From Octopus vulgaris (lineage: Eukaryota), in contig OX597814.1 in the NCBI GenBank assembly GCA_951406725.2, positions 91,574,001-91,638,000 on the forward strand: a stretch of DNA of 64,000 nt, written 5' to 3'. A program made the translations under genes and the position numbers. Position 1 is the stretch's first letter; each line of letters starts with the position of its first letter. Below the pieces are notes generated by a model, which was not told the DNA's origin, ran no database searches, and saw only the letters and a program-made list of their open reading frames with translations. Positions 15,884 to 17,402 of the stretch are shown here, in pieces.

Positions 15884-15944
<61 letters not shown>

Positions 15945-16031
15945 TATTAGAGACAAAACCACTATTTTGCAAAACAAACAAGGAAAGACTTAATCAATAC
16001 ATAAAATTTTAATAAATAGTCAAAAAAACCG

Positions 16032-16074
16032 CCACTACAATTGTTTCCTGTCTTGATCGACAATCTTCAGGTGG
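16032..16074 (-). ncRNA. Minimal type-I hammerhead ribozyme motif (inverted copy)
   Basis: It is the same as 17136-17178 except for CTGAAGA. The difference is at the variable N7 position. Confidence 0.9.
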
Positions 16075-17135
16075 ACTTCCAATCTAAAATATCAATATTT
16101 TAAAATATAAAAATAATAATTTTAAAATAATTAAAGTATTAATGAAAAAATATAAATATATAATCCATATATAACCTATATATAATCCATATATAATCAA
16201 TATATAAACAATATATAAACTAAAATAAACCTATCAACAATTAAATATAAAATATAAAATATAAAATATAAAATATAAAATAAAAAATATAAAATATAAA
16301 ATATAAAATATAAAACAAAACAAAAAAAATAATAATAATATAATAATAAACTATATATACACCCATACACATATAACTAATTATATATAACCATATCTAA
16401 CTACATACACTAAATCACACTCCTATATATATATCCCTATACATACACATAAAAACGTCTAGGCAACTATAAATAAATAAAATAGCTAAATACTTCAACA
16501 CAATACTTATTCATACTCTCACACACACACATACAACCCACATTCACGCTCTAGAAACGGACATCACTTAAAAAGTGTTCGTTTTACCAAGTGAATATAA
16601 TTTTTAATTCCATTTATTCCATTTCTCCGTTCATAATTTTAAGTGATGTCCGTTTCTAGAGCGTGAATGTGGGTTGTATGTGTGTGTGTGAGAGTATGAA
16701 TAAGTATTGTGTTGAAGTATTTAGCTATGTTATTTATTTATAGTTGCCTAGACGTTTTTATGTGTATGTATAGGGATATATATATAGGAGTGTGATTTAG
16801 TGTATGTAGTTAGATATGGTTATATATAATTAGTTATATGTGTATGGGTGTATATATAGTTTATTATTATATTATTATTATTTTTTTTGTTTTGTTTTAT
16901 ATTTTATATTTTATATTTTATATTTTTTATTTTATATTTTATATTTTATATTTTATATTTTATATTTAATTGTTGATAGGTTTATTTTAGTTTATATATT
17001 GTTTATATATTGATTATATATGGATTATATATAGGTTATATATGGATTATATATTTATATTTTTTCATTAATACTTTAATTATTTTAAAATTATTATTTT
17101 TATATTTTAAAATATTGATATTTTAGATTGGAAGT

Positions 17136-17178
17136 CCACCTGATGATTGTCGATCAAGACAGGAAACAATTGTAGTGG
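17136..17178 (+). ncRNA. Minimal type-I hammerhead ribozyme motif
   Basis: The motif is ccac-CTGATGA-ttgtc(gatcaa)gacag-GAA-ACAATTGT-A-gtgg. It has stem I ccac/gtgg, a 5-bp stem II, a palindromic stem III and a GUA cleavage triplet. Confidence 0.9.
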
Positions 17179-17355
17179 CGGTTTTTTTGACTATTTATTA
17201 AAATTTTATGTATTGATTAAGTCTTTCCTTGTTTGTTTTGCAAAATAGTGGTTTTTGTCTCTAATAATATTTTATAATATTTTACTATAAAATTGGATTT
17301 AATCCTAAATCTGATTTTTTTCCCTGTAAATTTGGATTTATTCCCTAATATTTAT

Positions 17356-17402
<47 letters not shown>

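Follow-up and report, generated by a model that had tools for sequence, protein, structure and literature searches.

Endonuclease-bearing (EN+) Penelope-like elements (PLEs) are known from several insertion products. According to the accessible parts of PMC8557442 and PMC3846280, they form pLTRs in partial tandem, leave inverted truncated copies, carry a tail at one end (30-40 nt in known cases) and target (TA)n; a hammerhead lies in the pLTR, the 5' UTR contains an intron (75 bp in Penelope, 398 bp in Chlamys-3), and an N-rich insert can separate RT from EN, as described for rotifer Penelope elements in PMC3846280. Within the C-terminal EN+ PLEs, the Hydra clade is characterised, in the accessible text of PMC8557442, by DKT instead of DKG, a CxCX5C linker, CxxC and CxH motifs flanking conserved E and N, GIY-YIG-type motifs, a hammerhead, (TA)n targets and a length of generally <3 kb. 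How PLEs make inverted copies and tails is described as unresolved in what could be consulted of PMC8557442 and PMC11167929, and the consulted part of PMC3846280 favours an antisense template. In vitro, the Poseidon_Ac protein cuts and extends both strands of an AT-rich target and starts at two internal sites that define the tail, with no strand difference in start site reported in the accessible part of PMC11167929.

We analysed a window of 64,000 nucleotides from Octopus vulgaris (contig OX597814.1, positions 91,574,001 to 91,638,000), in which a hairpin element of ~1.4 kb lies between two (TA)n tracts (Table 1). The earlier note, made from the letters of the DNA, had described arms of about 640 bp with about three differences, a 63-nt spacer, an 85-nt tail on the right only and TA tracts on both sides, and all of this was reproduced. 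The arms, each ~640 bp, differ by two substitutions (16481/16729 and 16066/17144) and one 1-bp indel (near 15954/17256), the loop measures 63 nt, and the palindrome match is far beyond chance. The arm/loop junction at 16573/16574 is blunt, with 0 nt of exact microhomology or overlap; automated measurement of junction overlap is unreliable in low-complexity DNA, and the value of the window copy alone was used. The element was also rightly called ORF-less: its interior contains no stop-to-stop frame of at least 70 aa, while one frame starting in the left TA tract enters its first 78 bases. Its proposed location in a GPCR intron was confirmed as well, since the pair of class B exons on the minus strand with GT-AG ends places it inside a 12.5-kb intron. 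The left flank (15342-15884) consists of two copies of a ~312-bp repeat, 76-84% alike.

Table 1. Features of the hairpin element and of the host gene in the window
Feature	Position	Strand	Basis or remark
Class B GPCR 42-nt TM7 exon, downstream of the intron	6000..6041	-	
Left (TA)n tract, insertion target	15884..15938	.	family ends run into (TA)n
Left arm: inverted 5'-truncated copy of the element 3' end, ~-683 to -82 from the tailed end, ending at the short end site	15935..16573	-	mapping to parent
Minimal hammerhead of type I with the family-type core CUGAAGA, in sense orientation relative to the host gene	16032..16074	-	sequence
Retained 3' part of the 5'-UTR intron, AG acceptor at its end, oriented with the host gene	16084..16573	-	intron comparison
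63-nt loop: intron sequence that continues the right arm upstream as in the parent	16574..16636	+	genome search, loose contig ends 16574/16575
Right arm: direct 5'-truncated copy; intron to AG 17125-17126, then ribozyme-bearing exon; all three private changes	16637..17275	+	
Minimal hammerhead of type I with a private core, CUGAUGA; cleavage predicted after 17174	17136..17178	+	sequence
Tail between the two fixed end sites of the family (82 nt apart in the parent)	17276..17360	+	family ends
Predicted 13-bp RNA hairpin, ~12 nt behind the short end site	17289..17318	+	folded on parent L061
Right (TA)n tract	17361..17398	.	
Class B GPCR exon preceding the intron, encoding TM6 to the beginning of TM7	18503..18638	-	7tm_2 E 0.0013, just under curated cut-off

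A search of the genome (2.8 Gb, 227 contigs) with the ribozyme and tail as query returned 1,518 candidate places, 40 of which were scored and are all at least 98% identical; the nearest named protein homologues come from octopods. The parent, L061, has a unit of 5,996 bp in partial tandem and an intact ORF of 838 aa. A second intact ORF of 840 aa was found in L146; four further ORF starts that were checked are broken or cut by the locus edge, and the element units measure 5,996 and 6,828 bp. The PLE origin suspected earlier from inverted pLTRs and a one-sided tail thus acquired an ORF-bearing parent. Its single ORF carries the telomerase-like RT motifs PMG and YRDD, and the six best PDB matches of the predicted structure (pLDDT 79) are telomerase RTs (E 4e-10). 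Sequence searches against Pfam and PDB gave no direct hit for the parent protein, and RVT_1 (Pfam) was found in 1 of 12 aligned family members. GIY-YIG-type motifs (VVY at 708, VYIG at 730) are conserved in the alignment; the Pfam GIY-YIG match is weak (E 0.065, 1 of 12 members), and no endonuclease is among the fold matches shown.

Of the EN+ PLE features, pLTRs in partial tandem, inverted truncated copies, the one-sided tail in (TA)n, the hammerhead in the pLTR and the retained 5' intron, are present in the octopus family. An asparagine-rich insert of ~110 aa lies between RT and endonuclease (L061:4200-4520). The octopus tail of 82 nt and the intron of 1.8 kb are both longer than those described above. 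Judged by its motifs, its (TA)n target and its hammerhead, the parent family fits the Hydra clade: it has DKT at 128, CTCRDKSNC at 689 (CxCX5C), CYLC at 795 (CxxC) and CRH at 824 (CxH), with one variant, KWK at 43, where the accessible text of PMC8557442 gives RWK for the clade and 10 of 11 homologues have RW. The parent differs from that clade in length (6.0-6.8 kb), which is due to long non-coding parts; a length of <3 kb is a typical trait of Hydra-type elements and not a diagnostic one. Other Penelope-like remains were seen in the course of this work. Some copies (L110, L122, L125, L126) lie near members of an older sister family that has diverged and shares the two-end layout. In the window, 30782-31913 is a decayed N-rich piece related to the linker motif of the parent (14/23 identical, E 1e-7), and 59572-63910 is another large inverted repeat (1.85-kb arms, 94%) that encloses RT/GIY-YIG-like ORF pieces belonging to a different Penelope-like family. 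Inverted repeats of 769 bp at 81% (42388-45239) and 228 bp at 96% (23773-24605) are possibly older insertions of the same type.

Counted from the tailed end of the parent, the window copy joins -683 to -82 in inverted orientation to -752 to 0 in direct orientation. Its junction has a single match genome-wide at no more than one mismatch, and all 39 other scored places (39/39) match the right-arm side alone. The spacer is the native 5' continuation of the right arm and thus not a separate part of the element. None of the three arm differences, all private to the right arm, occurs in the left arm, which shows no substitution relative to the sister copy L083. Given the unique junction, the private changes and the unchanged left arm, the window copy is a young, one-off truncation product and not a non-autonomous family. 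It is unspliced in both arms, ~490 of the 640 nt per arm being intron, and it is likely retrotranspositionally dead because it has neither an ORF nor the 5' exon of the parent. The earlier note had left two readings, an extremely truncated PLE insertion or a young non-autonomous ribozyme element, to be told apart by whether the arm/spacer junction varies or is constant. The junction is unique, truncation points and junctions differ among copies, and the first reading prevails; the absence of other copies and of a parent PLE, named there as a possible refutation, is contradicted by many copies and by L061. We are highly confident that a young Penelope-like retrotransposon with Hydra-clade motifs inserted at this locus, 5'-truncated and back to back, in the (TA)n of a GPCR intron, and a truncated Penelope-like insertion made by two-site copying is, with strong though slightly lesser confidence, the best explanation overall. 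The locus itself is a real but ordinary insertion of an already known pattern.

The hammerheads of the two arms point outwards. As read from the sequence, each comprises a 4-bp stem I, the core, a 5-bp stem II, GAAA, a palindromic 6-nt stem/loop III and the GUA site, a core layout that is matched in 108 of 109 family blocks. In the residue numbering of the hammerhead motif (N7, G10.1-C11.1), the arm difference at 16066/17144 falls on N7, as had been noticed before (A left, T right; CTGAAGA and CTGATGA). The right-arm variant occurs in 1 of 109 ribozyme blocks and the private changes of that arm in 1 of 62 arms; the N7 difference is a private mutation of the right arm and carries no signal. Stem II of the window motif closes with U-G and not with the usual G10.1-C11.1 pair. 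An Rfam scan detected no hammerhead, just chance miRNA matches below threshold, and the isolated motif gave no hammerhead fold in prediction (z 0.3 and 0.9). In the accessible part of PMC4209133, the G10.1-C11.1 pair is called highly conserved, and minimal PLE hammerhead motifs showed no activity as monomers. The claim of an intact minimal hammerhead per arm therefore stands for the layout in both arms, and "intact" applies to the sequence alone. That transcription of either strand would yield one sense hammerhead and a long double-stranded RNA is likewise correct on paper. On either strand, though, the full complement of the ribozyme is transcribed ahead of it, and the ribozyme would be expected to be paired up within the hairpin; the predicted fold of the minus strand pairs the whole motif.

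The copies of the family end at the tailed site or 82 nt earlier and then continue into (TA)n, a target that hides any target-site duplication. Among 45 two-ended inverted insertions found with tail-lacking queries, 42 have a tail at one end and none at the other (p 4e-10 if such pairing were expected in at most 50%). These 45 comprise 18 of 28 loci in a first set, 14 of 29 in a second and 13 new ones among 22 distinct places, the remaining tail-blind loci showing one end or repeating earlier loci; end types were called by script and then corrected by eye. The three like-ended exceptions are L087 and L093, both ends short, and L132, both ends tailed, and in a tail-selected set all 14 insertions (14/14) were also unlike-ended. 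In contrast to the window copy, L132 (1090-1780; G000:C1:21587000-21596900) has mirrored flank DNA as well and represents either an assembly artefact or a genuine fold-back duplication. Both start sites sit in the 5' UTR, ~135 and ~50 nt before the ATG, and a hairpin is predicted ~12 nt behind each on the parent L061, with 13 bp at the short site and weaker at the tailed end (z -3.2 and -1.9). That these hairpins mark initiation is suggestive only.

The intron in the pLTR serves as an internal marker of the template. It is 1,818 nt long with GT-AG ends, and its acceptor lies 10 nt before the ribozyme. Exact junctions occur genome-wide in 275 spliced and 295 unspliced copies, and the similar numbers of both set the octopus family apart from the EN+ PLE insertions described in PMC8557442 and PMC3846280. 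Spliced copies belong to three SNP subfamilies that also contain unspliced ones, which points to repeated splicing and excludes one deletion, and the hundreds of spliced copies show that sense RNA serves as template. Inverted pairs within 20 kb on contigs C1-C4 were counted among the matches listed (64 of the 275 spliced and 100 of the 295 unspliced), by exact patterns, which would overlook an arm that carries a mismatch or is cut within the 13 nt preceding the junction: 18 pairs are spliced-spliced, 26 unspliced-unspliced and none mixed (44/44 concordant), where ~21 mixed pairs would be expected. The fully read loci contain no mixed pair either. Of 109 comparisons at polymorphic sites between arms of the same insertion, 1 is discordant, against 29 expected; the arms of L108 differ at a polymorphic site. 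The paired arms of family insertions were likely copied from one and the same RNA, although two RNAs of the same class from one source locus could also produce a concordant splice state. An A-to-I edited template was considered and rejected: A>G changes show no excess, making up 3 of the 34 sites that vary in the exon block and 7 of the 93 that vary in the arms.

Hundreds of hairpins of ~400 bp consist purely of spliced 5'-end RNA (genome-wide in G000, and at L108, L125, L129, L130, L135 and L147-L176), and some of their junctions recur across SNP subfamilies. Several spliced arms stop at the A of an initiator-like TCACTT (L117, L135, L147, L149); L170 extends ~35 nt further, and a single transcription start at this A is not claimed.

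In L1 twin priming, two target primers on one RNA yield an inversion, one at the poly(A) end and the other at a variable internal site, and the copied parts do not overlap. The octopus family differs in that both sites are fixed and the arms often overlap by hundreds of bases. The concordance of splice state together with the pairing of ends favours two priming events on one sense RNA, and we consider such a one-RNA, two-primer mechanism reasonably probable. The endonuclease would cut both strands in (TA)n; cDNA synthesis would begin from one 3'-OH at the tailed site and from the second 3'-OH at the short site 82 nt away, on one unspliced sense RNA in the case of the window copy. Both cDNAs would stop early, after ~750 and ~600 nt, and repair would join the two cDNA ends, with 0-nt overlap in this copy, and fill in. 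Tailed arms often stop near the second start site, and in eight insertions (L083, L097, L098, L107, L114, L127, L149, L167) the tailed arm covers just -57 to -120, which is what twin priming predicts; neither of these arms can have been copied from the other, as the tailed one ends near the start of the other. We lean slightly towards the broader proposition that PLEs insert by fixed-site twin priming, in which both cut strands prime one sense RNA at two hairpin-marked sites, one per strand. The Poseidon_Ac start sites lie in the ORF, whereas the octopus family has them in the 5' UTR and pairs them across the insertion ends, and the lack of a strand difference in the accessible part of PMC11167929 is a point against a model with one site per strand. 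Long overlapping arms, as in the window copy, would also need the RNA to be read twice. PLE reverse transcriptases are not known to have RNase H.

A fold-back route, by which one cDNA primed at the tailed site snapped back, left the 63-nt loop and copied itself to the short site, fits the window copy, whose tailed arm is longer and contains the whole other arm, and would guarantee matching splice state and SNPs. It also fits some recurrent short junctions: one junction with a 4-nt loop recurs in four spliced mini-hairpins (L151, L155, L162, L173), always with the longer arm tailed, and three of the four were typed to three different SNP subfamilies. Self-priming is proposed in the consulted part of PMC3846280. 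Fold-back cannot, however, yield barely overlapping arms or the many insertions whose untailed arm extends further in the 5' direction (e.g. L062, L064, L066, L071, L083), and since either arm can reach further, simple fold-back is excluded as the general route. At the window copy, the junction without exact microhomology and the location of all three private changes on the right arm also speak against it, the latter weakly, as the changes may post-date the insertion. Taken together, we regard fold-back as an unlikely origin.

It is just as doubtful that a protein dimer held two RNA molecules, one for each of the cut strands to prime on. A dimer extending both strands is predicted in the accessible part of PMC11167929, long overlapping arms would then need no strand displacement, and the polymorphic difference between the arms of L108 agrees with two templates. 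On the other hand, no mixed splice-state pair was found among 44 although both forms are about equally common, independent templates would not predict the strict pairing of tailed with untailed ends, and the frequent ends of tailed arms near the second start site are not explained either.

A non-autonomous ribozyme element, retrozyme- or MITE-like and moving as a 1.4-kb unit, is largely refuted and most improbable: the window copy has no ORF, has intact-looking ribozyme cores and resembles the animal non-LTR retrozymes (described, in its accessible part, by bioRxiv 10.64898/2026.07.22.740005) in being non-coding, hammerhead-bearing and pLTR-related, and some junctions do recur among the much shorter spliced hairpins, but retrozymes are families of tandem repeats, whereas here no tandem monomers of 150-400 nt exist, a single junction occurs once in 2.8 Gb, the spacer is native parent sequence and truncation points vary. 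A fold-back assembly or chimeric-read artefact is equally remote despite the near-perfect palindrome and the mirrored flank DNA of L132 in the same assembly, as the flanks are unrelated, unique and unmirrored sequences, the arms differ at three sites, the left arm ends exactly at the biological short end of the family, and dozens of loci show the same asymmetry. None of the contigs listed from four public runs, which are short, bridges the junction, and the evidence for the locus is therefore the assembly; contigs of these runs with loose ends at 16574/16575 carry native parent sequence. No RNA run is among the public runs listed as containing the sequence. The empty insertion site was sought through the old repeat that lies in the right flank, and none of the 4 places examined, out of 40 scored, connects it to the left flank.

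The literature searched at listing level, outside subscription journals and supplements, contains no report of arm concordance; the supplements of PMC8557442 and PMC11167929 may show the family or the arm pairing. The mechanism of PLE insertion is constrained by how strictly ends and splice states are paired, and the intact copies of 838-840 aa are available for an in vitro assay. If true, fixed-site twin priming explains the one-sided tail and the inverted copy together, and it would settle the question of a sense or an antisense template left open in the accessible part of PMC3846280; the 1.8-kb intron, spliced in half of the copies, would then amount to a natural labelling experiment. For the host, the predicted fold of the minus strand suggests that the arms would pair in the pre-mRNA over ~640 bp (-955 kcal/mol), forming a duplex in which the ribozyme and the element acceptor at 16084 are masked. 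Each such insertion leaves a long perfect hairpin, which in a transcribed intron would be expected to form double-stranded RNA.
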